Source of the DNA: Eledone cirrhosa
Lineage: Eukaryota
Length of the DNA: 64,000 nt
Assembly (NCBI GenBank): GCA_964016885.1
Contig: CAXHJY010001041.1
Location: 1-64,000 of the forward strand
Direction: 5' to 3'
Part shown: in pieces, positions 10,768 through 56,355 of the stretch
How the letters are laid out: each line of letters starts with the position of its first letter
Numbering within the stretch: the stretch's first letter is position 1
The notes under the pieces: generated by a model
What the model was told of the DNA's origin: nothing
Seen by the model: only the letters and a program-made list of their open reading frames with translations
Databases searched by the model: none
Program-made: the position numbers and the translations under genes

Positions 10768-10938
10768 CATATGTCCCAAGTCTCTGATACCATCAACACT
10801 ATACACACAGAGCTGGCATATCTAAGAACTGACTAACTGCCTGATGAGGTCATACCCATTCAATGGCTATCATCGAAATATATATAGCAGTAAATAAAGG
10901 ATTATGAGTTCATGCAATTGACTTATCTTTCGTCACTA
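10768..10938 (+). mobile_element. Short HHR-bearing Penelope-like 3' fragment in (TA)n
   Basis: About 170 bp island between TA runs; the HHR is followed directly by AATAAA. Confidence 0.65.
10836..10891 (+). ncRNA. Minimal type I hammerhead ribozyme
   Basis: Stem I ACTGC/GCAGT; CTGATGA (10841-10847); imperfect stem II hairpin 10848-10874; GAAA (10875-10878); 2-bp stem III with palindromic ATAT loop; AUA triplet. Confidence 0.8.
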
Positions 10939-10960
10939 TATATATATATATATATATATA

Positions 10961-11318
10961 ATGTAAGTATACGTACATACATATATGTATACAGACGTAC
11001 AGTAGTATGTATATATATATATACATACATGCACACATATATATATATATATGCACGTATCGGTTTACCGAACATTAATTATAATGCTCGCCGAGGTTGA
11101 CTTTGCCTTTCATCCTTACGGGGTCGATAAAATAAAGTACCAGTAATGCACTGGGTATTTGCTGGCCTTGTGCCTAAAGTAGAAACAATTAATTATAATG
11201 CTCGGTTTGTTTGTAAACAAACAAACAGCCCGAATTACGCCGTAGAGTGGGCAACCACGTCACCTTTAAGTAACTGCCGTACTAAGAGTGAGAAATGAAA
11301 TTTCGTTTCATTCTATTC

Positions 11319-30413: not shown

Positions 30414-30774
30414 ATATTTGGCAATATATCGCATGTTTAATTAAAACATTTAGAAGACTATACACTATCAGTTTTAAAGTAGTGACTATGTCCCTTACTT
30501 CTTTCGGCGAAAGAAGGGAGAGAAGCTGACAGTCTGTTTCATGTTGGTTGGCGTTCATCAGAGCCACGTACTCCCCTGCTTTCGCCGAAAATTATAGAAT
30601 TCAAGTAATAATCAGGAGCTGATTATACAGAGCGATTTCCGGTCCAGCAAAAATTAGGTATTAGTATTGGTGCTCTGAAATAGCGATGTATACATGAATG
30701 TATGTATAGTATATTTGGCAATATACTGTATGTTTAATTAAAAACATTTAGAAGACCATACACTATCAGTTTTA
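30412..30774 (-). mobile_element. Retrozyme-like element, family H3: about 297-nt monomer with about 65-bp terminal direct repeats
   Basis: Direct repeats at 30412-30476 and 30709-30774; (TA)n on both sides; central HHR. Confidence 0.72.
30502..30590 (-). ncRNA. Type I hammerhead ribozyme with long stem I (stem II eroded)
   Basis: Minus strand: GGCT-CTGATGA-ACGCCAACCAACAT-GAAA-CAGACTG-TC-AGCT, closed distally by GGGAG/CTCCC and TTTCGGCGAAAG/CTTTCGCCGAAA; GUC triplet. Confidence 0.7.
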
Positions 30775-30797
30775 TATATATATATATATATATATAT

Positions 30798-30935
30798 AGG
30801 GAAATGTTCAAGACCCCGACTGCAGAACTCTGCAGTCGGGGTCTTGAACATTTTCCTATTACCCACTCTACTACCCAAAGTATTGAGTACTCTGGTGCGT
30901 TATGGTCCACCTGGTTCCTCACCACACTTCCTTCG

Positions 30936-30937
<2 letters not shown>
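30798..30937 (+). mobile_element. Family H2 fold-back 3' end
   Basis: Perfect hairpin AAATGTTCAAGACCCCGACTGCAGA-AC-TCTGCAGTCGGGGTCTTGAACATTT plus the H2 tail. Confidence 0.7.
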
Positions 30938-30990
<53 letters not shown>

Positions 30991-32630
30991 ATGCAAAATG
31001 TCGCACTTCAGAAAGGCTGGAGAGTTCTGAAGTTCATAGAACATGTAAAAACTCAAACGTCAAAACAAATGACTGTAAACACAGTTGATTGGTATAAATA
31101 ATAGTTTATAGATTCGGGTAAAATACCCTTATAGTCAAAACAATGTGGCCAGTGGAGGAATCGAACTTCATATCTTTCAGATACTGGCTGACTGCTATAA
31201 CCATTGAGGTGAAGGGGTCTTTTTTTAGCAGAGCTTCAGGTCGGACTAGCTGGACCTTTGTGAGTGAAATTATTTGTAAGTCCGTCAGATGTACTCGTAG
31301 TTAATTCAAATTCCATATTCCACTCTAGTTGTTCATATTAACTGGTGGTCGTCGAACTCTCCTCATTAATATAATTTTGAAAGATGTCAGCTTTATCAAA
31401 CATTGTCACACGGAATCTCCCTGAGGGTATAGGCCATGTACACGTTAACATCACAAGCAGGCTGTTCTGTTGATCAAACAACTGGAACACTCATCGTCGA
31501 TATCGACAGGGACCTAATCCAGTGTAGTTGTTGATATGAACGAGAGTTTGTCGAAATCTCGACATTAATTTCCAAACTTTCATCATCTTCCTTTTCTCTC
31601 TCTTGTTACTCCTGGAAGTGGATTCACTAATTCAATTTTATTATTTGCCTTCAATAACTGAATTTATGATTTATTAATAATCTAATTTGTCCAAAAATAA
31701 CCAGATTACTGAAGGGTGGGCAATGAGACACACACCCCGCTCACTTTCCTATAAACTTTCATTACACCCGTTCCCCAACCGGTTTAGAGCCGTTACTAAT
31801 CCGTTAGTTTTCCACCTGCAGAATTATGTCAGCGATGAGAAAATCAATATTTTAAATTATTTAAATTAGAATCTAACAACTAATAGAACCAACGGCCTGT
31901 GGTTCATCTTGGTGGCTTCAATTAACATCGGGTGGGGGGAATTACGGAAACAAAAGTTTAGTATGGTTGAATCTAAACTAAATAGTAATAAGTAATAATA
32001 GTAATAAGTTTAGTATACTATAGTTTAATCTAAACAGTAATAAGTTTAGTATGGCTTAGTTTAAACTAAAATGGTGACGAACTGCCAGAATTGTTCAAAC
32101 GGTAGATTGACGCTCTTTTAGGGTCATTCATTCAATTTCTCTGTGCTCTGAGTCCAAATCCTACAGCGTTCAACTTCACATTTTATCCATTAGGGGCCAG
32201 AAAATAAGAGAAGATGGGGGTTCATTTCTCTCTCCCTCTCCATGTGGTCAAACCTAGAAATTAATTGGGCATCGCCGATATTTAAAATATTACGAAGGAA
32301 TCCAGCGTGTCTATGTTCACGTTTACTGCCTGTTTAGATCCCTCGACTTAGCGGTTTAACAAAATAAATACTGTTATTGCTGCCCCAGCATGACCGCAGT
32401 CCGTTCACTAACCCCGGTAAAAAAATTTAATATTTCAATATCTTCCAAAGAATGAAATGTTTTTGAAATTCCAATTTGTCAAAATCTACTTTTTGTCTGT
32501 CAAGAAAATTAGGGGTTTTGATATAAAAACTGTTCCCGTTGAACTCTTTTTCACGTGATCAGGGGTCAAAATAATCGGATCACGTCAAGAATAACTTAAC
32601 TCTGAAATGACTATACGTGTTGATTCTTGT

Positions 32631-34092: not shown

Positions 34093-34866
34093 AAAAAGTA
34101 TGACCCCGGCGGCAGAGCTCAAGCCGTTTCGACGGCTATTTCTGGACTAAATTAGAATTTTTAGCCTGGTGAATAAATAGCCGAACTTGTCAAGGGGGTA
34201 CTTCCTTATATGGGAGGATTGGTTAAAATTTGTTGTGAACACAAATAAATCTATCATGGCATTTGGTAGGAGGTTGGGGTGGCTGAACTTGCTTTTGTTA
34301 CTATTCAATTTCTACAAGTTTTTTCTATTCTCAACTTATTAACCTGTAATTGTAAGATAGCATCGTGATTTTTTATTCATTTCTCACTATCTAATTTTAT
34401 ATATTTTTTATTTATTTCTATTATCTTTTATTATCTCCTACTCTCATTCGATTTACCTATTCTATAACCTCCCTCCTCCACTTCATACACTATCCTTAGA
34501 ATCTGCTGTATACATATCACTTTCAACGCTTGACCGCCCCACTCACTCCCCTATTGTTCTATAGGCAAGTTCAGCCACCCCTACATCCCACCAAATGTCA
34601 TGATAGACTTATTTGTGTTTACAACAAATTTTAACCAATCCTCTTGACAACTACAATCTTTCCATATAAGGAAGTACCCCCTTGACAAGTTCGGCTATTT
34701 ATTCACCAGGCTAAACATTCTAATTTAGTACAGAAATAGCCGTCGAAACGGCTTGAGCTCAGCCGTCGGTGTCATACTTTTTCCTATTTCCCACTCTACT
34801 ACCCTAAGTATTGAGTACTCTGGTACGTTATGGTCCATCTGGTTCCTTACCACAATTCCTTTGTTA
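34089..34866 (+). mobile_element. Family H2 Penelope-like element with inverted pseudo-LTR
   Basis: 34089-34292 is an inverted copy of 34565-34787; an unduplicated tail of about 80 nt runs to 34866; TA flanks. Confidence 0.78.
34672..34779 (+). ncRNA. Type I hammerhead ribozyme, U3-A8 variant core (inverted copy at 34096-34203)
   Basis: AAGTA-C-CCCC stem I; TTGACAA (34682-34688); stem II CGGCTATTT/AAATAGCCG; GAAA (34745-34748); stem III CGGCT/AGCCG; GUC (34765-34767); 3' strand GG(T/G)G-TCA-TACTT. Confidence 0.68.
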
Positions 34867-34891
34867 TATATATACATATATATATATATAT

Positions 34892-34993
34892 AAACGGAAA
34901 AAATGAAACGAAATTTCATTTCCCACTCTTAGTACGGCTGTTACTTAAATATAAGTATGTACACGTACATACATATATGTATACAGACGTATG

Positions 34994-35026
<33 letters not shown>

Positions 35027-35396
35027 GTATGTATATATATATATATATATATACATACATGCACACATATATATATGTACGTATGGATTCACCGAACAGT
35101 TATTATAATGCTCGGTGTGTTTGTAAACAAACATCCCGTATTAAGCCGTAGTGTCTAGCAACCATCGTTGCTCGTTTGTTCAACACTGACAAAGGAACGC
35201 TGTACTAGTTTCAAGCTTATTAGCTATCGTCAGCAACGTATACTTTCCTGCCAGATTGTTGAACGTATATATTAACGGCTGAGTAGCCCAATTTGCATAT
35301 CGAGTGGGTTAATCGGCCGGGTGCACCGAAAACGATAAACGGAAAAAATAAAACGAAATTTCATTTCCCACTCTTAGTACGGCTGTTACTTAAATA
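34892..35396 (-). mobile_element. Family H1 element, about 445-nt monomer with about 60-bp terminal direct repeats
   Basis: AAACGGAAAAAAT.AAACGAAATTTCATTTCCCACTCTTAGTACGGCTGTTACTTAAAT at 34892-34950 and 35337-35395. Confidence 0.78.
35197..35239 (-). ncRNA. Minimal type I hammerhead ribozyme
   Basis: Minus strand: ACGTTG-CTGACGA-TAGCTAATAAGCTT-GAAA-CTAG-TA-CAGCGT. Stem I pairing is kept despite changes versus the 824-866 copy. Confidence 0.82.
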
Positions 35397-35864
35397 AGGT
35401 TGTACTGGGATACATGTTACCAGAAGCACCAACTGGTGACCTGACATAATATATATATATATATATATATACATACATATACATATAATCAACCTTAATC
35501 ACACTCTATTAACACAGACTCAAGCAAATTCTGCTGGTTTCCGAGCTGTGTCTGGACGGAAGCAGCCACCTAGTGTTATACAAATGCATTAAATTAGTCT
35601 GCGATTTGTGCATGTTTGTTGCTCATTTGAACACTAGTGGAGATATACCTCCAAGTAACAGCTACATACCGTAATTGATGACATTCGATAAAGAAATATG
35701 GGGCAAGCCCTTATCTGAACACTGAGTCTCAGAAATATTATCAAACTTTCTTTTGACCTATCTCAACATAGATTACAGCTAACACTCTCCTACAACAATT
35801 TAAAGTTTTTTTTTCTTTTCTTTTCGATGTTGTTGTAGTTGCTGTTGTTAATATATTACTTTGT

Positions 35865-44089: not shown

Positions 44090-44171
44090 AAGCTTCGATG
44101 AGGTTCGAACACAAACGATAAGTTCCCAATGGATTAGTAGTCCATCACCTTAACCACTTGGCCACCTCGTC
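44090..44171 (-). pseudogene. tRNA-Ser(GCT)-derived pseudogene
   Basis: Minus strand GACGAGGTGGCCAAGTGGTTAAGGTGATGGACTACTAATCCATTG closely follows the conserved metazoan Ser-GCT 5' half. The anticodon now reads ACT and the 3' acceptor strand does not pair. Confidence 0.8.
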
Positions 44172-44597: not shown

Positions 44598-45488
44598 CCC
44601 TTTCATTATAATGTTATGCAAGAACCTTTAAGTTATGCTCTAAACACCAACTTCATAATAAGAAAGTTAGTTATATTATTAAATCCCTTGAAATGTTTGA
44701 TTATTTTCAAAATGATTTGAAAATCATAGACAGTGTCTTTCATTAGAAATATGGTAAAGAAAGGGTTAATGACATAGACAGTGTCTTTCATTAGAAATAT
44801 GGTAAAGAAAGGGTTAATGACATAGACAGTGTCTTTCATTAGAAATATGGTAAAGAAAGGGTTAATGACATAGACAGTGTCTTTCATTAGAAATATGGTA
44901 AAGAAAGGGTTAATGACATAGACAGTGTCTTTCATTAGAAATATGGTAAAGAAAGGGTTAATGACATAGACAGTGTCTTTCATTAGAAATATGGTAAAGA
45001 AAGGGTTAATGACATAGACAGTGTCTTTCATTAGAAATATGGTAAAGAAAGGGTTAATGACATAGACAGTGTCTTTCATTAGAAATATGGTAAAGAAAGG
45101 GTTAATGACATAGACAGTGTCTTTCATTAGAAATATGGGTAAAGAAAGGGTTAATGACATATACAGTGTCTTTCATTAGAAATATGGTAAAGAAAGGGTT
45201 AATGACATAGACAGTGTCTTTCATTAGAAATATGGTAAAGAAAGGGTTAATGACATAGACAGTGTCTTTCATTAGAAATATGGTAAAGAAAGGGTTAATG
45301 ACAGACAGTGTCTTTCATTAGAAATATGGTAAAGAAAGGGTTAATGACATAGACAGTGTCTTTCATTAGAAATATGGTAAAGAAAGGGTTAATGACATAG
45401 GTAGTGTCTTTCATTAGAAATATGGTAATGAAAGGGTTAATGACATAGACAGTGTCTTTCATTAGAAATATGGCAATGGAAGGGTTAA
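44598..45488. mobile_element. piggyBac-like MITE whose right end is amplified as a 48-bp tandem array (about 16 copies, 44724-45488)
   Basis: CCCTTTC left end; each unit ends GAAAGGG-TTAA; related bodies at about 20050-20530 and 44480-44577. Confidence 0.65.
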
Positions 45489-45696
45489 ATTAAAACAGTA
45501 TTTATTAGTATAAGATGTGATCTCTATTCTATTTCCCCATAAGGTTAGGTTTAGAGTGAACATGGCTTTATCTAACTTGAGAGACTCATCAATTCTGTCA
45601 CCTCTCTGAACACTTCTTTGTACTTCAAAACAACAGACATTCTTCTACATTTCACTCTCAGAATTCTGTACAGATTTCTACTGACCAAATATGACA

Positions 45697-46500
45697 TTCA
45701 CTGTCACATCCCCCTTCACTGTCACATCCCCCTTCACTGTCACATCCCCCTTCACTGTCACACCCCCTTCACTGTCACTTCACCTTCACAGTCACTTCAC
45801 CTTCACAGTCATCTGTCATTCACAGTCACTTCACCTTCACAGTCATCTATCACTTCCCCTTCACAGACATCTGTCATCTGTCACTTCCCCTTCACAGTCA
45901 TCTGTCACCTGTCACTTCCCCTTCACAGACATCTGTCACCTGTCACTTCTCCTTCACAGTCATCTGTCACTTCACCTTCACAGTCATCTGTCACTTCCCC
46001 TTCACAGTCATCTGTCACCTGTCACTTACCCTTCACAGTCATCTGTCACGTCACCTTCACAGTCATCTGTCACTTTCCCTTCACAGTCATCTGTCACCTG
46101 TCACTTACCCTTCACAGTCATCTGTCACTTACCCTTCACAGTCATCTGTTACTTCCCCTTCACAGTCATCTGTCACTTACCCTTCACAGTCATCTGTCAC
46201 TTCCCCCTCACAGTCATCTGTCACCTGTCACTTACCCTTCACAGTCATCTGTCACCTGTCACTTACCCTTCACAGTCATCTGTCACCTGTCACTTACTCT
46301 TCACAGTCATCTGTCACTTCACCTTCACAGTCATCTGTTACTTCCCCCTCACAGTCATCTGTCACCTGTCACTTACCCTTCACAGTCATCTGTCACTTAC
46401 CCTTCACAGTCATCTGTCACCTGTCACTTACCCTTCACAGTCATCTGTCACCTGTCACTTACTCTTCACAGTCATCTGTCACTTCACCTTCACAGTCATC
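45697..46500. repeat. Modular minisatellite (CTGTCAC / TTMCCCTTCACAGTCAT)
   Basis: Read directly. Confidence 0.92.
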
Positions 46501-46734
46501 GGTCATCTGGAAATTTAATCATCTTTCTATAGTCTGTTGACAAAAACTCATTAAACCAATCTTTTCAATCATACTTTCTTAAAGGACCACATTTTCAATC
46601 ATACTTTCTTAAGGGACCACATTTTCAATCATACTTTTTTAACGATTTTTAAATGATTCTTGTGTTAGCAGAAAGCATACAATCACCACCATCCACATCA
46701 CCATCATCACCATCATCATCATCATTGTTTCTAA

Positions 46735-46852
46735 CTGATCTAATCTGGGTCTCCAAGTGAGACCAGCCAAGCTCATGGATGTTATCCAACCATCTTACTC
46801 GGGGTCTACTCCAGGGTCTCCTGCCAGTTGGTTTTGCCCATAAAATCTGTCC
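46735..46852 (-). mobile_element. RTE LINE C-terminal fragment
   Basis: QILWAKPTGRRPWSRPRVRWLDNI. Confidence 0.7.
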
Positions 46853-47410
46853 AATAAAAAAAAACATTAAAAAGTGGCCAAACTGTTGTCCATGAGCAGA
46901 AATAATGAAAGAGACATAGAAATGAGGTTATTAAGTTGAGAGAAAGTTTGTTGTTGGGTAACCATGAGAATCTAATGATTAAAGTAGAGAATATAAATGA
47001 CCTCTGTAAGTGTTAATAAGAAGTGTACCAGTTGTTTAATCAATGGTGTGGCTTAATTATTAAATTAATTTGCAGGTAGTTGAGTATTACACTTTGCATT
47101 GGTCACCCTCAAAACGTCAGGCATCCTAGCACCCTGTACAGCTGAGCTCCTCTGTAATACCAGAATAAGAGCAGCCCACCTGACAAAGGTGGGGTGGTTG
47201 TTGCAGCTGGTGTTGTTGGTCATTGTCTGCAGAAACACTGCTCTGGCCTAGGGGTCACTCTCTCCCCTTCTCCCTTCTTTTGTCTAGTAGTCCTTCTTCT
47301 TCCTTTTCCTTTCATTTATGGCATTTATAGTCCTTTCCAATACTGCTTTCTTTTTCTATATGTTTAAAAAGATTCTGAAAATATATATATATAATGTATA
47401 CACACACACA

Positions 47411-47514
<104 letters not shown>

Positions 47515-49182
47515 GTGGTTTCAGGCAGTTTGCTATCAAAAGGGTTAACAAAGAATTCTTACTGTAAAATAACACTCTAATCATTCAAGTAATATTTCTG
47601 AATTTCCAGAACAATCCAACCCATTCTAATATGAATGTATGTAAATATCCTTTCAAATTTACAGGATTTGCAAATTTTAAAATTTATTTCAATAAAATAA
47701 ATGTCAAATGATAAAAACAAACTAAATAAATATATAGAAGTTGATGGAAAATTTCTAAAATATACAACAAATTATAAACTCATATAATAAGTTAATTTCA
47801 AGATCTTGTCTTGAAAACAGCACAGCCTGTAAATTCCTGTATAACATATATACATATATACAGTCACACACATACACATACAGGCAGACACATACAGATA
47901 TTAATGCACACAGAGGCACACACACATGTACACACAGAGAGACATACACATACAGTCTCTCACAGTTTCTCACACACACACATATATATACACACATACA
48001 TATATACACATAGACACAGTCTCACACACACACCCGGACATATACACACATACATACATGGCACATCAATACACATGTACAAACATACACATTCATATAT
48101 CTAAATGCTACTAGAATAATCTTTGCAATTATTTTTAAACCTTCTCAAAAACCTTCTCAATATCTGAAGAAATTCTGCAGTGGTCCAAGAAGAAAGTAAT
48201 TTTCTAGTTGAATGAATTTCAAGATTTTGTTCAAATCTAAACTTTCTGCCACAAAACTACTATTTTTTTTTAAAAAGGGATTTCCTATGTAAATCTCATT
48301 TCCAAGATTTTTATTTTTCCTCTTCCAGTTTTTATTAATACAATTCTCTAGAATCTAATCCAAAAAATATTATAGTTCATTTTATCCCCCCCCCCCCCCC
48401 CCATTAAAAGTGGTATTGGCACTGCAGAGGACAATGTCTGATTGAATACGATAAATAGCATTGACTGTGAAGGAAACATTTCTACAATCAGATCATAGCT
48501 TCCATGTGTAAATTTAATGATATTGCATTATGGGGAAAAATGAGTCAGTCATCTTAAATATTTTATTTTTTTTAATTTTCAACTCTTTATACTTTTCTAA
48601 AGGTGCAGGCATGGCTGAGAAGTGAATTCCTCAGCTATGTGGTTTTAGGTCCAGTTATATCACGTGTCTTCTGCTATAAGTAGCAGATTGACCAGTGTGT
48701 TCATCATCATCACCATTTAACGTCTGTTTTTTTATGTTTGCATGGGTTAGACGGATTGCCCACATTATGAGGTCAGTCTGGCCAGGTAGCCACACTGTGC
48801 CCTGCTCAAATGGAACTGGTATTTGGCATATCTTACACTATAATATAACATGGACTGTACTAGTAATTAAAAGAGCCAGCCTTGTCACACAGTGTGTTAC
48901 ACTGAATCTCCCTGAGAATAACATTAAAAGTACACAAGACTATGGTAAAGATACTGGCTCAAGATGCTATGGAGTGGGATGAAACCTAGGACTTCGTGAT
49001 TGAGAAGTGAACTTCTAAACCATTCAGCAATGTCTGCTTTTACAAAATTAACTCTTCTTTGAGTATTGACTACTTATTTCATCCATTTGTATATCTGTGA
49101 AGAACTGTAACCATCTACTATTACAGTCAAACAATGATGGCGTCCCTAGGTATGTCTCTTGATCACTTCTTATTAATCTGGT

Positions 49183-49373
49183 ATCGGTGGATTGGCAGTA
49201 TCGGTAGAGGGTCGGACGCCATGCTTTGACGCATAGAGTTACGGTCCTTGCCATTCTGAGTTCAAATCCCGCCGAGGTTTACTTTGGCTTTCATCCTTAC
49301 GGGGTCGATAAAATAAAGTACCAGTAATGCACTGGGTAATTACTGGCCTTGTGCCAAAAGTAGAAACAATTAT
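49183..49373 (+). mobile_element. Family A SINE
   Basis: A and B boxes, CTTTCATCCTTACGGGGTCG core, GTAGAAACAATTATT end. Confidence 0.9.
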
Positions 49374-51399
49374 TACACATCTCCAAATATTCCAGTTTAA
49401 TGAAGATAAATTTAGTAATTAATAGAAATAAAATACAATTTTGTTTTTTAAATATACCTCTTTGGTTTTAATCTGAGATTCTTCTGGCTGTGAGTTCCAC
49501 ATCTTTGGAAGTCTTTAGAAAAAGTAAAACAGCATTAAAAAGTTTCCTAATAGATTTGAATATCTTTATAAGTAGACCTGATCCAATACGTCAAAAGCAG
49601 AACTTTCTGATATGTACTTCAGTTAGTAGTCAGTGACCTGACAACAGTAATGGTGTCACTTGGTTGTAATTGTATATTTTTGGAGACATGTCACCTTTCA
49701 CATGGATATATTGTCCATAACAGAAGTGTGGGAAGCTTCCCTCAGTTTCTTAAAGCAGTTACATCATTTAAGAGAAAGATTGCCAATTAATCCACTTGCC
49801 TTGTTCCTTCCAGATGAATGAAAACATCAATGATTTGTGTCAATCCTTATTTGTTAGTTTAACATTGCCAGGTATGAATAAAGACATGGTCACCATGTGT
49901 GTTATTGTAAAGAAGCATCTTTCTTAAGACAGGGCATCACTGTCAACAGAGCTAATATTCTCCACTCTACAGACGGCTTTTATAATATTCTGTGATGAAA
50001 AGAAACCATTTTCAGCAATGAATTCAAAATTATTGTGAAAATGATTCCAACCAGTGTTCCATTCTTCCCATTCAATGGTTTTGCCTCCAAATATGTTTTA
50101 TATCGACACAAGAGAAATAAAAATATATAAAAGAAGATACAACTTGTAAAGTAGTTACTAGAACTATTTTATATTTCAGCTTAATTTCTTGTTGGTTAAT
50201 TAGAATATGGTTAATTAGAATATGGTTAATTAGAATATGGTTAAAAGGTATCTTATGAAGCAGTTATAGTAATTTATTTCTGCTTGACTTTTTAGTTTTA
50301 TCCCTTTGGCAACGACAACTATATGTGTAACAAAAAGAATTTTATATCCTTACTGTGGCAAAATTCCTCAAATGTCTGGTCATGGACTGTGACAACCTGT
50401 CCGACCCATGCCAGGGAAAGTGAATGTAAAATGAGGATGGTTAGATTTTTTAAATTTAATACCTGTATGTATAAGTTTTCCATTAATTGCACCAAGCTGA
50501 CTTTGATATGCAAAAAATTGGGGGGGTTTGCTGTGTTTTCTAATTTTCCCCAAACTATTTCAAGTAATTAATGAAGGATTTTGAGGGATTTACTAAAATT
50601 ATCATTTCACTACTAAGATAGTTTTCCCTTCGACATTGGTGGCAAATTGTGCTTCTAATATATTAATCAACCTGTCATGTGATCTAAGATGTATGAGTGA
50701 CAGCTGCTCTGTCCTAAATGTCTGAACAGTACTCTAATATTCTACACAGGTTTTGTTAGCAAATGTTTATAACTTAAATAGTTCTTGACTGTCATTTATG
50801 TATAGGTCATTTATAAAAGGTCATCATACATTGTAAGTCTCAGTATTTGTAAATACTACGCACATACACATGTGTGTGTATTACACACATTTGCTACACA
50901 AACTCTCACATGTACACAAATATGCCAAGAAACATTGTTGTTCCATCTAATCACTAATTCCAAATAGACTTTATATCAACTGTTATACTACAATAACATG
51001 ACACTACTCTCCAAACAGTTTTATGCTATTGTGTGTCTATGTGTTTGGTAAGGTATCTATCATTGTATATAAATACAGGTAAAATTCCAGTATAACATTT
51101 TTTTCCATCTCCGAGGTAATAACAAACACTCGATTCGTTTAGGTCAATCTCGTTATAAAGAATTTTTCGTTGCGACAAATTTTTTTTTATACCTTTTATA
51201 ATTTCATTATAATGGGATTTCACTGAATTTGATGAAGAAAAACTATATTTTTGACCTGCAGATTATAGAAACCCCCATACCACAATATTTCATCGTGCAG
51301 TTTATTTTATTTAATACAACAAAATGGTGACATCCCCCACCAACTTATTCCTGAGAGGGTCATGGGAGCAGAGTCCTCAAACACTCCTTCCAACGGGTC

Positions 51400-51990
51400 C
51401 TGTCAGAAGCAACTGACCCCAACTGATCCGGCTGGATCCCCAAGTGAGACCACCCTGGGTCTCCTGTCGGTTTGTTTTACCTGTAAAATCTCCTCAGCGA
51501 TTCTTTCCTTAGACGTTCTAACCACATGCCTATAGTATTGGAGCTGTGATCTCCCAATTCTGTGAAGTAGCAACTCTACCTTGAGTGACTCTACCTTGAG
51601 TGACTCTACCTTGAGTGATTCTACCTTGAGTGACTCTACCTCGAGCGACTCTACCTTGAGCGATTCTACCTTGAGTGACTCTACCTTGAGTGACTCTACC
51701 TTGAGTAACTCTACCTTGAGCGACTCTACCTTCAGTGACTCTATCTTGAGTGACTCTACCTGTAGTGACTCTACCTTGAGTGACTCTACCTGTAGTGATT
51801 CTACCTTGAGTGACTCTACCTTCAGTGACTCTACCTTGAGTGACTCTACCTTGAGCGACTCTACCTGTAGTGACTCTACCTGTAGTGACTCTACCTTGAG
51901 TGACTCTACCTTGAGTGACTCTACCTTGAGCGACTCTCTGATCTTCGAGCTAATCACATTTATAATTAAAAGACAAAATGTCTTTCTTGC
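51400..51990 (-). mobile_element. RTE LINE fragment with an internal 15-bp tandem array (51573-51937, about 24 copies)
   Basis: IRESLKVE(SLKVE)n LLLHRIGRSQLQYYRHVVR...RIAEEILQ...RRPR. Confidence 0.75.
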
Positions 51991-53255
51991 GAGAATTATA
52001 TGAAGTTGTATTTCCATCTTTGTTTATGTGGTTTATTTACTACAACGTTGTTGTTCTCTTCTGAGTGTTTAGAGTGGCTGGGTAGCAAGTGCTCAACACA
52101 TACATTCTTATGCTCTACCAACTTCATTTTATCATGGCACCAGCACTAGGGAGGCTGCCGTGCCCTTGACACAGCTGAAGGGTCCTCTTGACCCTTTATT
52201 TGACAGGATTTTCTACAGATTTAGTTTAAATGTGTCAACCAGCTTTCAAATCCTCCCACTCAACTACTTAATATTTTAATAGGTTTTTATCCTGTTTATC
52301 ATTTCTATATTTCTGCAGTTAACTTCACCATTATGTCTCTTTGATGATAACAGATCAGGCTATAAAACATCCATACCTTGAGCAAGTTAATTAATCTAAT
52401 TTAAATATATGAGGGAAAGAAGGGGAAGACAACAGAGTATGAGAGGGGGGATATAAAGAGAGGGCTCTCTCTCTCTCTATATATATATATAGAGAGAGAG
52501 AGAGAGGGAGAGAGAGAGGGGGATCTAAAGAGAGGGATATATATATATACATATGAGAGAGAAAGTGAAAGAGATCCCAAATAGAAAAAGAGTGATAGTG
52601 TGAGAGGATGGAAAGAGAGAGAGGAGGGGAGGCAATGTGGTTTGAATGAAGAGAAAGGAAGAGAGAGAGCTAGGGCAACAAAAATAAACAAACCCCCACC
52701 ATCTCCATCACTAACACCACCACTCCCTTTCACTACTACCACCACCACCCCATCACTACTACGACAACCACCAGCATCCCCATCACTAATTTCTATTTTA
52801 TAATGTTAATAGCAATGTTGTTCCTGTTCCAACAAAAGGCACCCAGTCCACTCTGTAAAGTAGTCATGTAGGTGTCACAACAAACAGCACCCAGTCCACT
52901 CTGTTTGATCAAGATAAGGTCATGTGACCTGACTTGCCTCACAACAGGATAACTCGTCTAACCCATGCTAGTGTGGAAGAATGGATGTTAAATGGTGATA
53001 TATATATGGTCGATTGATCAGGTGATATATTGATCTTCTCTGATCAATCAATACTCTGAAACAATCTTAAAACAAAGAACTATTGATCTCTGACTTTTGT
53101 TTTATTTTCATTGTTCTATACACACATACACACACAGATTTATATATACATATACACACACAGATTTATATACATATATACACACACAGATATAGATAGA
53201 TATATACATACACACACAGATATATATATATACAAACACAGACACACACACAGAT

Positions 53256-53866
53256 ATCATCATCATCGTTTAACGTCCATCTTCCACGCTAGCATGGGTT
53301 TGGACGGGAATTTTCCCACTTGAGGCAAGAGTGGTTGTCCTGCTCGTATAAGACTGTCTGGCGGGTTTTCTACGGCTGGATGCCCTTCCTAACACCAACC
53401 ACGTTTACAGTGTGGACTGGGAGGTTTTTACCGTGTTACCTACACGGCCACATTACAGCATGGACTGTGTTTTTGTTTTGTCGTGACACCTGCACGACCT
53501 CATTTGTTTCGGACTGGATGTTGTGGTACCAACATAACTCTGCATTGAAAGGGGTGGTGTGGATGGGGTGGGGGTAGTCGGACAGGGGTGTATTTTTGTT
53601 AGAGGTGCCTACTGACTGTAGGTTTCGCTTTGTACTTAGGCAAGGCGGGTCTTCTGTATTACTGTGTAGCGCCAAAGATCTCGGTCCAGTGACATTGTCT
53701 TGGAGAGGTGTAAGTGTGTGAGGTCGGAATTTATCAGATCGTCCCAGATTTTTCTGGATCTGCCTACTCCGTAGCTACCGTCTATTTTGATCGCCCTGCA
53801 CTTTTTTATACAGCTGTCGTCTTTCATGCGCATCACGTGACCATACCAACGTAGTCTTCTCTCGAG
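53256..53866 (-). mobile_element. RTE LINE 3' end (ORF C-terminus, 3'UTR, (GAT)n tail)
   Basis: ERRLRWYGHVMRM...GRSRKIWDD...DRDLWR; the UTR has GGTTGGTGTTAGGAAGGGCATCCAGC and CCCATGCTAGCGTGGAAGATGGACGTTAAACGATG. Confidence 0.88.
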
Positions 53867-54112
53867 TAATATATATATATACATACACACAGATTTATAT
53901 ATACACACACACACACACTATATATATATATACACGCATATATAAATATATTAAGTTAGACATAACCTGGGCAAATACTGGTTGAAACCTATCAAAATTA
54001 TATATATATATTTAGTTATCTAATAAACAAAATATGATAATTATTTCATTTACCAGTGGTTTCTTGAAGACATATATTTGTTTTTCCTGTACCTTTCCAA
54101 CGGAAATACTTC

Positions 54113-54153
<41 letters not shown>

Positions 54154-54239
54154 TGTGTGTGTCTATGTATTTGTATGTGTTTGTATGTCTGTGCTTGTAT
54201 ATATATATAAAGATGACACACACATGGTTGGTAATTAAA

Positions 54240-54662
<423 letters not shown>

Positions 54663-55335
54663 TATAGTGTTTAATGAGATGACAATTTCATGGTGTTGTG
54701 ATGTTATCTCAACTTTGGTTGTCTTTCATTTTCACTATTAACCATTGCAATGACATATTTAGAGCAAATCTAGTAATTGACCCCATCTACAACACCAGGA
54801 CCCTTTTTTCCTGGCTGTCCCCTCCTATCTTTCACTCTTCCCTGGCCTCCCCCTCCCACCACAACACAGGGTTCATGGCTGCTGTATAAAATTGCTATCA
54901 TTAAATCTCTTTAGCTATTAGACCAGTGCATGCTATGTTGTGCTGTGGTGTGTGTGTTTGTGATGTGGTCGATGTGTGTGTTTATCTGTGTGTGTGGGCG
55001 TTTTTGTGCTGTGGTGCATGTGTGTGTGTGTGTATATATGTGTCTGTGCTGTGATGAGCGTGTATGTGTGTTACTATGCTCTGTATGTTACCCCCCCCCC
55101 CTCCTCCAATGTAACTATCACCTAAATGGACTTGTTATTATTAATGGCTGTTATTAAGGTCATCATCACTGCTACAGTTTTATATACACATGGATGGCTC
55201 TATCTCTCTCTCTCTCTTTCTCTTTCTCTCTCTCTTTCTCTCTCTCTACCCCCCACTCTCCTGAGCGTGAATCTAATAAACATTTGTCGTACTGCCTCTC
55301 TGTTCTGTCCCTGTTCAATTTTTTATTATATATAT

Positions 55336-55665
55336 ATATGAAATAAAATGTCTTGCTCAAGGAAACCCCCCCCCCCCGGGTCTGAGAATTGAGACCCGGG
55401 GGGGGGGGGGTTTCCTTGAGCAAGACATTTTATTTCATATTGCTCCAGTTTACTCAGCTGTAGAAATGAGATGATAATGATAGGGACTGGGGTCCCTATC
55501 ATTCCACTGCAAAGTGGTCGTGGAGGTGCCACAACAAAAAAGCACCCAGCACTCACTGTAAATGAGGTTGGTGTTAGGAAGGGCATCCAGCTGTAGAAAT
55601 CAAGCCAAGATCAGTTCCCGTCCCACCCTTGTAAGCAGGGAAAAGCGGACATAAAATGATGATAT
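55336..55665 (+). mobile_element. 5'-truncated SINE with a near-perfect 5' fold-back
   Basis: Arms at 55336-55383 and 55392-55440; the remainder is near-identical to 56785-57030. Confidence 0.8.
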
Positions 55666-56355
55666 GATATATAATGTAAAAGGTAAACAGAAATAACAAA
55701 ACAAACGGCACATTACATGAAAGAAATATATTAGTTTGACGCTTGAAATATCAGGAAGACTCACTTCCTGACATTAGTCCTTCATCAGAAGATAGAAATA
55801 GAAAGTAAAGAGTGATACGAGGAAGGATTATGGAAAAAGGAGGAAAAAATAAGGGAGAAAAAATGTGCGTGTGTGTGTGTGTGTATGTATGTGCATGAGT
55901 ATATGTGTATGTGTATATATAAGTATGTGTGTCTGTGTGTGTATATATGTATATATACACACATATATTATTGAGAGAGAGAAATGACCTTACAGAAGTA
56001 GAACTGTTTCATTCATATAGCATCAGTTCTAGTACTTTAAAGTCATTTCTATAATAAAGTTGCCTTTACTCTACCAACGTATTGAGTACCCTTTTTAACT
56101 GTGGTTAGCTCACTACACCACTTCGAAATATATATATTTATATATATACACACGTGTGTGTATATACGAGCATGACAACCAATCTTGCTTCAAGTGGGAC
56201 AATTCCCGTCTAAACCCATGCTAGTGTGGAAGATAGACGTTAAATAATGATGATGATGATATTGAGTGTGATTTTGTATTATTAAAGAAGGAGCCCTCAA
56301 TATGTAAACAGAGAGGTAATTTATATATATATATTAAATAATAATCCATGTATCA

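Follow-up and report, generated by a model that had tools for sequence, protein, structure and literature searches.

A likely hammerhead retrozyme family in Eledone cirrhosa, probably inserted into (TA)n tracts by Penelope-like enzymes

The insert at 34890-35396 of the window (the whole stretch of DNA analyzed here, 64,000 nt of an Eledone cirrhosa contig) is very probably a 5'-truncated copy of a non-coding tandem-repeat retrozyme, copied into a (TA)n tract by the reverse transcriptase (RT) and GIY-YIG endonuclease of a Penelope-like element (PLE) acting in trans, and it likely represents a new family of non-LTR retrozymes moved by PLE proteins. In the mechanism that we propose, the PLE endonuclease would nick both strands of the target; one nick would prime reverse transcription at a first site of the RNA, called A, and the other at a second site, called B, with 1-5 nt of base pairing to the target assisting the starts. 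RNA structure may set both of them, a small hairpin having B in its loop and A lying just past a tail hairpin; the template being copied would exceed one unit, and synthesis would halt at random. In the copy at 34890-35396, synthesis would have been primed at A and would have stopped after one unit plus one tail, the tail being the stretch from A to B.

This copy is a one-armed insertion of family H1a (family a below), 507 bases or 1.14 units long. Its hammerhead motif reads 35240-35195 on the minus strand, so that the insert is minus-sense as RNA, its 3' end lying at 34890 and its 5' truncation at 35396. Starting from the 3' end, the tail (34890-34951) extends from start site A (34890-34893) to start site B (approximately 34947-34952) and includes a conserved hairpin. 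Next on the same strand comes a (TA)-rich stretch (34952-35084) that is predicted to form one arm of a long hairpin and exceeds its counterpart in the rest of the family by about 36 bp, then a point (35270-35271, with loose ends at 35271) at which 15 bp present in the family are deleted, and then a second copy of the tail (35335-35396), which comes from the next unit upstream and in which reverse transcription would have ended. On its 3' side the insert abuts the (TA)n target tract (34865-34889), itself the end of another multi-copy repeat, while the 5' junction (35397-35487) comprises the last 52 bp of a repeat from an unrelated family and then (TA)n. No open reading frame of 110 aa or more was found over the insert, and the 2-kb bin that holds it has a GC content of 0.35. 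Among the neighboring repeats, positions 34700-34864 and 30738-31100 hold another high-copy short repeat ending in (TA)n, a frequent landing site for retrozyme inserts, and 35397-35448 (relatives in L170-L176) is the terminal part of a repeat of about 650 bp that looks non-coding, has (TA)n at both sides and may resemble RTE-type 5' regions.

The initial annotation had reported direct repeats of about 60 bp at both ends of this insert, as well as a monomer of about 445 nt. The repeats are real: 34890-34951 and 35335-35396 are both 62 nt long, are identical at 61 of 62 positions and are spaced 445 nt apart. The monomer length did not hold, as the family unit measures 422-424 nt and the value of 445 is peculiar to this copy, caused by the 15 bp missing at 35270/35271 together with the longer (TA)-rich hairpin. 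The terminal repeat is not a fixed feature across copies of the family, and given that 5' ends are scattered without a pile-up at B, the stop near B in this copy looks like chance. Synthesis that was primed at A and halted one unit plus one tail later would thus have produced the 62-bp repeat, which is likely a PLE tail combined with chance truncation and not proof of a circular RNA. As the insert contains only one hammerhead, release of a monomer or excision of a circle from it is likely impossible. Its length falls short of the two units given for an “active” retrozyme in the available text of Li 2026 (bioRxiv 10.64898/2026.07.22.740005), and the copy itself is ordinary and likely inert.

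The case for PLE-type insertion is carried by the ends of the inserts across the genome (3.0 Gb, 1796 contigs). For families a and b, 44 of the 3' junctions fall at site A (33 of these at one single base) and 20 at site B, with 1 internal deletion, and nearly all of them abut (TA)n. Site A lies 61 nt downstream of B in family a, the 62-bp repeat is exactly the A-to-B stretch, and tails measure 61, 63 and 74 nt in families a, b and c. Measured from the hammerhead cleavage site, B and A lie 213 and 274 nt downstream in family a, 240 and 303 nt in family b, and 228 and 302 nt in family c; in each family's predicted structure, B falls within or next to a small hairpin's loop, and A directly follows the tail hairpin. 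The 5' ends are scattered. Within 3 nt of the cleavage site we found 1 of 174 (2.7 expected; by eye, about 3 of the 36 loci that appear in the first 100 of 1081 rows), and within 10 nt of B we found 5 of 174 (about 8 expected), and we rejected both a pile-up of 5' ends at the cleavage site and preferred stopping at B on these counts. Circularly permuted ends, which the initial annotation had suggested looking for by aligning genomic copies, are absent, the 3' ends being fixed at A or B, away from the cleavage site.

Many inserts carry two arms placed head to head, and in these sites A and B are used as a pair. For the count of two-armed inserts, edge-cut clusters and duplicates were left out and 64 inserts from families a, b and c were kept, 53 of which combine one A end with one B end; 1 was called A+A, B+B did not occur, and in 10 one of the ends misses both sites. 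The combination A+B is thereby seen in 53 of the 54 resolved two-armed inserts (p=6e-15), and the lone A+A call (L020) is a locus for which junction mapping shows an outer B end. No A+A or B+B insert was present among 16 two-armed clusters identified as duplicates by a loose key (0/16). One-armed inserts end at A in 31 cases, at B in 13 and elsewhere in 9. Most of these loci come from similarity searches, which favor copies that extend across a unit boundary, and only 18 arms come from an unbiased grid of eighty 10-kb stretches at regular spacing (799,600 bases); the A+B rule is kept in the five resolvable grid inserts (L091, L102, L133, L142 and L153). The window itself contains a two-armed head-to-head copy at 10953-11317, split by another repeat, with a B end on the left and an A end on the right.

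The (TA)n tract next to the inserts is likely their target and not their product. In the empty-site test, which gave matches for 2 of 53 clusters, one empty paralogous site already holds (TA)n, and one insert (L321) has no (TA)n and is flanked by a duplication of about 10 bp. Target duplication was read by eye in L321 and L313 of family c. The idea that the element makes (TA)n itself is therefore not supported, on the basis of two informative sites.

A search with the unique part of the insert returned 1466 candidates, 40 of which were scored and are 93-96% identical. The grid sample contains 15 clusters in 11 stretches, representing 12-15 inserts since some may be one insert split, and this scales to approximately 45,000-56,000 inserts in the genome (Poisson range 23,000-93,000). 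Family a consists of tandem units that each carry a hammerhead, in arrays of up to 3.2 units, and its layout is common to the sister families b and c, with units of 460 and 467 nt. A copy of family H1b lies at 641-1102 on the plus strand of the window, with a 460-nt unit, a hammerhead at 823-868 and its 3' end at site B. Family c copies are 98-100% identical, and very young examples (467 nt) were seen at L143:806-1272, L311 (G000:C3:367003006-367011666) and L312; the latter two are two-armed, with about 12+6 and 9+3 units, and 14 of 16 full units in L311 and 9 of 9 in L312 are identical. In contigs from four sequencing runs, family H1 was detected in three organisms, in two of them by short pieces only.

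PLE-type families that are abundant and have long open frames number at least four in this genome. Across these four, Pfam detects RVT_1 in three, GIY-YIG in two (in one of them marginally below the cut-off), while the fourth gives no match. Two RT-bearing autonomous elements, both with RVT_1 by Pfam, have two ends on (TA)n like the retrozyme families: the first shows 27 long and 23 short ends, a tail of about 58 nt and a GIY-YIG motif read by eye, and the second 16 long and 6 short ends, a tail of about 40 nt and a GIY-YIG match just under the cut-off (E=1.8e-4). No sequence common to the retrozyme unit and an autonomous PLE was found in the four families examined, apart from incidental neighboring inserts. 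Having no RT or GIY-YIG frame, the insert is not an autonomous PLE; it behaves like PLE cargo. Notable among the PLEs of this genome are a family (L208, L222 and others) with many copies of the same 784-aa open frame (RVT_1, GIY-YIG), which has likely been active recently, and an RT plus GIY-YIG element (L178, L183, L204 and L205) with two ends on (TA)n and a 40-nt tail, whose short end has TACTTAT in common with site B of family a and near whose end no hammerhead motif passes our scan.

The footprint can be compared with that of known PLEs as far as the available text of the relevant papers goes. Craig 2021 (PMC8557442) reports partial tandems, a copy that is both inverted and 5'-truncated, and a tail that often occurs at a single end, and together with Arkhipova 2013 (PMC3846280) gives a length of 30-40 bp for this tail. 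In the accessible part of Frangieh 2024 (PMC11167929), the tail corresponds to the sequence that separates two internal start sites of the RT, the target is cut and extended on both strands, hammerhead cleavage is not required for insertion in vitro, and the start sites of the anole enzyme are not homologous to the cut DNA. On these descriptions, the inserts studied here share with endonuclease-positive PLEs their 5' truncation, partial tandems, head-to-head inverted arm and one-end tail, the two internal starts in a stem-loop context, a hammerhead upstream of the starts, AT-rich or (TA)n targets and duplications of about 10 bp. They differ in that the retrozyme has no reading frame, its tail is 61-74 nt instead of 30-40, and its start sites match the target over 1-5 nt, these being short matches to (TA)n that set them apart from those of the anole PLE enzyme (PMC11167929). 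The A+B pairing, described qualitatively for PLEs in the same sources, is near-absolute here (53/54). A further parallel in the text consulted of Craig 2021 (PMC8557442) is with non-autonomous Chlamys PLEs such as MRC1, which are likewise non-coding and multicopy head-to-tail with pLTR-like ends, but which are described as having no canonical hammerheads and 3' sequence in common with an autonomous family.

The ribozyme is a type I hammerhead at 35195-35240 on the minus strand. In stem I, 35239-35234 pair with 35202-35197; the core consists of CUGACGA (35233-35227) and GAAA (35212-35209), stem II has U.U at its base, and helix III is the palindrome ACUAGU at 35209-35204, which the initial annotation had pointed out as ACTAGT, with cleavage predicted between 35203 and 35202. 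Its differences from the related plus-strand hammerhead at 823-868, of sister family H1b, are also as first described, namely C/U at N7, UAAUAA/UAACAA in loop II, and a U-G to G-U change in stem I. Scanning for type I hammerheads gave 64 matches in 0.8 Mb of genome versus 0 in the reversed sequence, and the motif is therefore not due to chance. An Rfam scan at E<=1 contained no hammerhead family among the best 150 of 151 matches, so the evidence for a hammerhead comes from the motif scan and from covariation; the Rfam matches in the window were rejected as real RNA families, being microsatellite artefacts. For covariation we used families a, b and c and a 310-bp array, that is, four related sequences with the structure drawn from those same sequences, and found both sides changed in 9 of 14 pairs, with 94.6% of cells pairing; 0 of 500 shuffles were as high, and slid alignments gave 0-1. 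The pairing-conserved hammerhead that the initial annotation had proposed to examine for covariation is borne out in this set.

The palindrome of helix III is kept while its central letters change from TA to GC between families, and as this center pairs only between two motifs, the change supports a dimer-type helix III. Predicted energies point the same way, with a closed monomeric helix III costing +5.4 kcal/mol relative to the open form and a six-base duplex gaining -6.8; of the earlier suggestion of dimeric cleavage, which was based on the palindrome, the dimer-type helix III is thus supported by the TA to GC change and by this modeled monomer cost. A perfect palindrome occurs in helix III of 48 of the 64 motifs of the grid sample, and the motifs agree with the dimer model for hammerheads with a palindromic helix III, as given in the available text of Cervera 2014 (PMC4209133). 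The 64 minimal type I motifs (L089-L168, 0.8 Mb) belong to many families and suggest a number on the order of 10^5 genome-wide. Among other hammerheads seen, one of a different family lies at 10834-10894 of the window, with helix III ATATATAT and relatives in L074 and L186, and the 310-bp tandem array from L141:5754 onward has 17 hammerheads with loop II as in the H1 family. A splice-donor-like site upstream of the hammerhead is present in family a, absent from b and deleted in the insert at 34890-35396, and was discarded.

Membership among the retrozymes follows from comparison with animal non-LTR retrozymes in the accessible parts of PMC7229834 and bioRxiv 10.64898/2026.07.22.740005. Common features are non-coding tandem units of a few hundred bases with low GC and no true LTRs, a hammerhead of type I whose palindromic helix III is weak, the presence of PLEs in the genome, and the occurrence of monomers, dimers and multimers; at the base of helix II, the U.U seen here agrees with how axolotl HHR_Amex2 is described in the same sources. 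Retrozymes are expected to have tandem units of about 150-450 bp with a hammerhead, into which range the unit of 422-424 nt falls, with the sisters at 460 and 467 nt. Of nine Xenopus dimer constructs, one cleaved according to the text seen of Li 2026, and combined with the in vitro result that cleavage is needless for insertion, this suggests that the ribozyme may be weak or act at a different step.

What kind of RNA served as the template can be narrowed down from the arms. A linear cleaved monomer would cap arms at 274 nt, with their ends at the cleavage site, whereas 138 of 174 arms (9 of 18 in the grid) extend beyond this site; the templates were longer than one unit. Arms exceed a whole unit in 113 of 174 cases, mostly at search-selected loci, and in 7 of 18 in the grid, the longest in families a and c measuring 3.2 and 12.1 units. 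This bears out reverse transcription past one unit, as the initial annotation had it, but not its reading of the 62-bp overlap as a family trait or a sign of a circle. A ligated circle and an uncleaved tandem transcript are about equally plausible as the template, and we give a circular template read from fixed starts an even chance; a circle, if made, would measure about 422-424 nt, not 445. The stricter version of the initial annotation, in which one round plus an overlap on a ribozyme-made circle of about 445 nt leaves permuted ends, is in our view very improbable. The crossing of the cleavage site without a 5' pile-up and the long arms are what a circle would give, but an uncleaved tandem transcript predicts the same read-through, and the permuted ends are refuted by the fixed 3' ends, while the overlap length varies freely among copies. 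The unit is predicted to fold as a self-paired circle, about 70% paired and with the hammerhead formed, although the (TA) hairpin inflates the z-scores of this fold (-9 to -10), and circles of related repeats are reported from coral, mussel and axolotl in the available text of PMC7229834.

Sequence variants within arrays speak to the same choice. In L316, L322, L324 and L326, insert-specific variants recur in every unit of both arms, as a circle copied repeatedly would leave them, but long arrays can also grow after insertion. Within single arms, 28 variant sites are present in all units versus 218 in only some. L313:1928-5680 alternates 467- and 480-nt units, with some period-4 variants and a 13-bp insertion in units 2, 4 and 6 that is absent from unit 0 of either arm, a pattern that fits block duplication in the genome after insertion, for which reason we rejected this period-2 array as proof of a dimer circle. 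Late variants common to only some units of L313, L314, L316 and L321 point to duplication or conversion after insertion, and a variant in unit 1 of both arms of L253, absent from unit 0, fits a multimeric template. Long transcripts of homogenized source arrays could therefore give the same variant picture.

In a more far-reaching reading, a ribozyme-made circle would be the template, and a two-headed Penelope enzyme would prime both target strands simultaneously, one at A and the other at B, and roll round it. We put this forward tentatively, as a possibility that is less likely than not. If true, the near-absolute A+B rule would be the genomic record of this coupled priming, and the families would offer the first direct trace of an animal retrozyme being moved by rolling-circle retrotransposition through a telomerase-related enzyme with which it has no detectable sequence kinship.

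Returning to PLE-mediated insertion in trans, it has to be weighed against the possibility that the unit is the terminal repeat (pLTR) of an unsampled autonomous PLE and the insert a heavily truncated copy of it. All of the insertion marks are PLE-like, four PLE families were checked among the many present, and in the text available of Li 2026, 24 of 57 Xenopus retrozyme families are homologous to known elements, nearly all of them PLE termini. However, the many arms that pass a whole unit re-enter another unit, no listed 5' junction enters common non-unit sequence, a common flank beside the unit was found in 0 of 30 loci, and arrays reach 12 units without a link to a reading frame; we therefore regard this origin as very improbable, about as much so as the 445-nt circle. 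For the insert to have arisen as a satellite or by local duplication, with no part played by reverse transcription, is scarcely conceivable, for while its surroundings are microsatellite-rich and some arrays have expanded in place, copies are dispersed over many contigs with fixed 3' and scattered 5' ends, a strict A+B rule, target duplication and a covarying ribozyme.

The use of PLE enzymes by retrozymes has been proposed from co-occurrence and pLTR homology, according to the accessible parts of PMC7229834 and bioRxiv 10.64898/2026.07.22.740005. In the H1 families, the link comes instead from the insertion footprint, which is unusually clean, with the mark of the PLE enzyme seen directly in many copies, and the A+B rule provides a countable constraint on models of PLE second-strand priming. 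With the young family c copies and the intact PLE frames, the questions of partner and circle become open to the published in vitro assay. We found no published description of the H1 family or of the A+B rule as a count, though Repbase, Dfam, subscription papers or supplements may hold one; in the text available of the Octopus vulgaris repeat annotation (PMC13282606), PLEs are mentioned and ribozymes or retrozymes are not. Elsewhere in the window, a near-perfect G/C-rich inverted repeat of 79 bp lies at 55349-55427, with an Rfam miRNA match below threshold, and a tRNA-like match of 32.8 bits at 44096-44171 is probably the head of a SINE.
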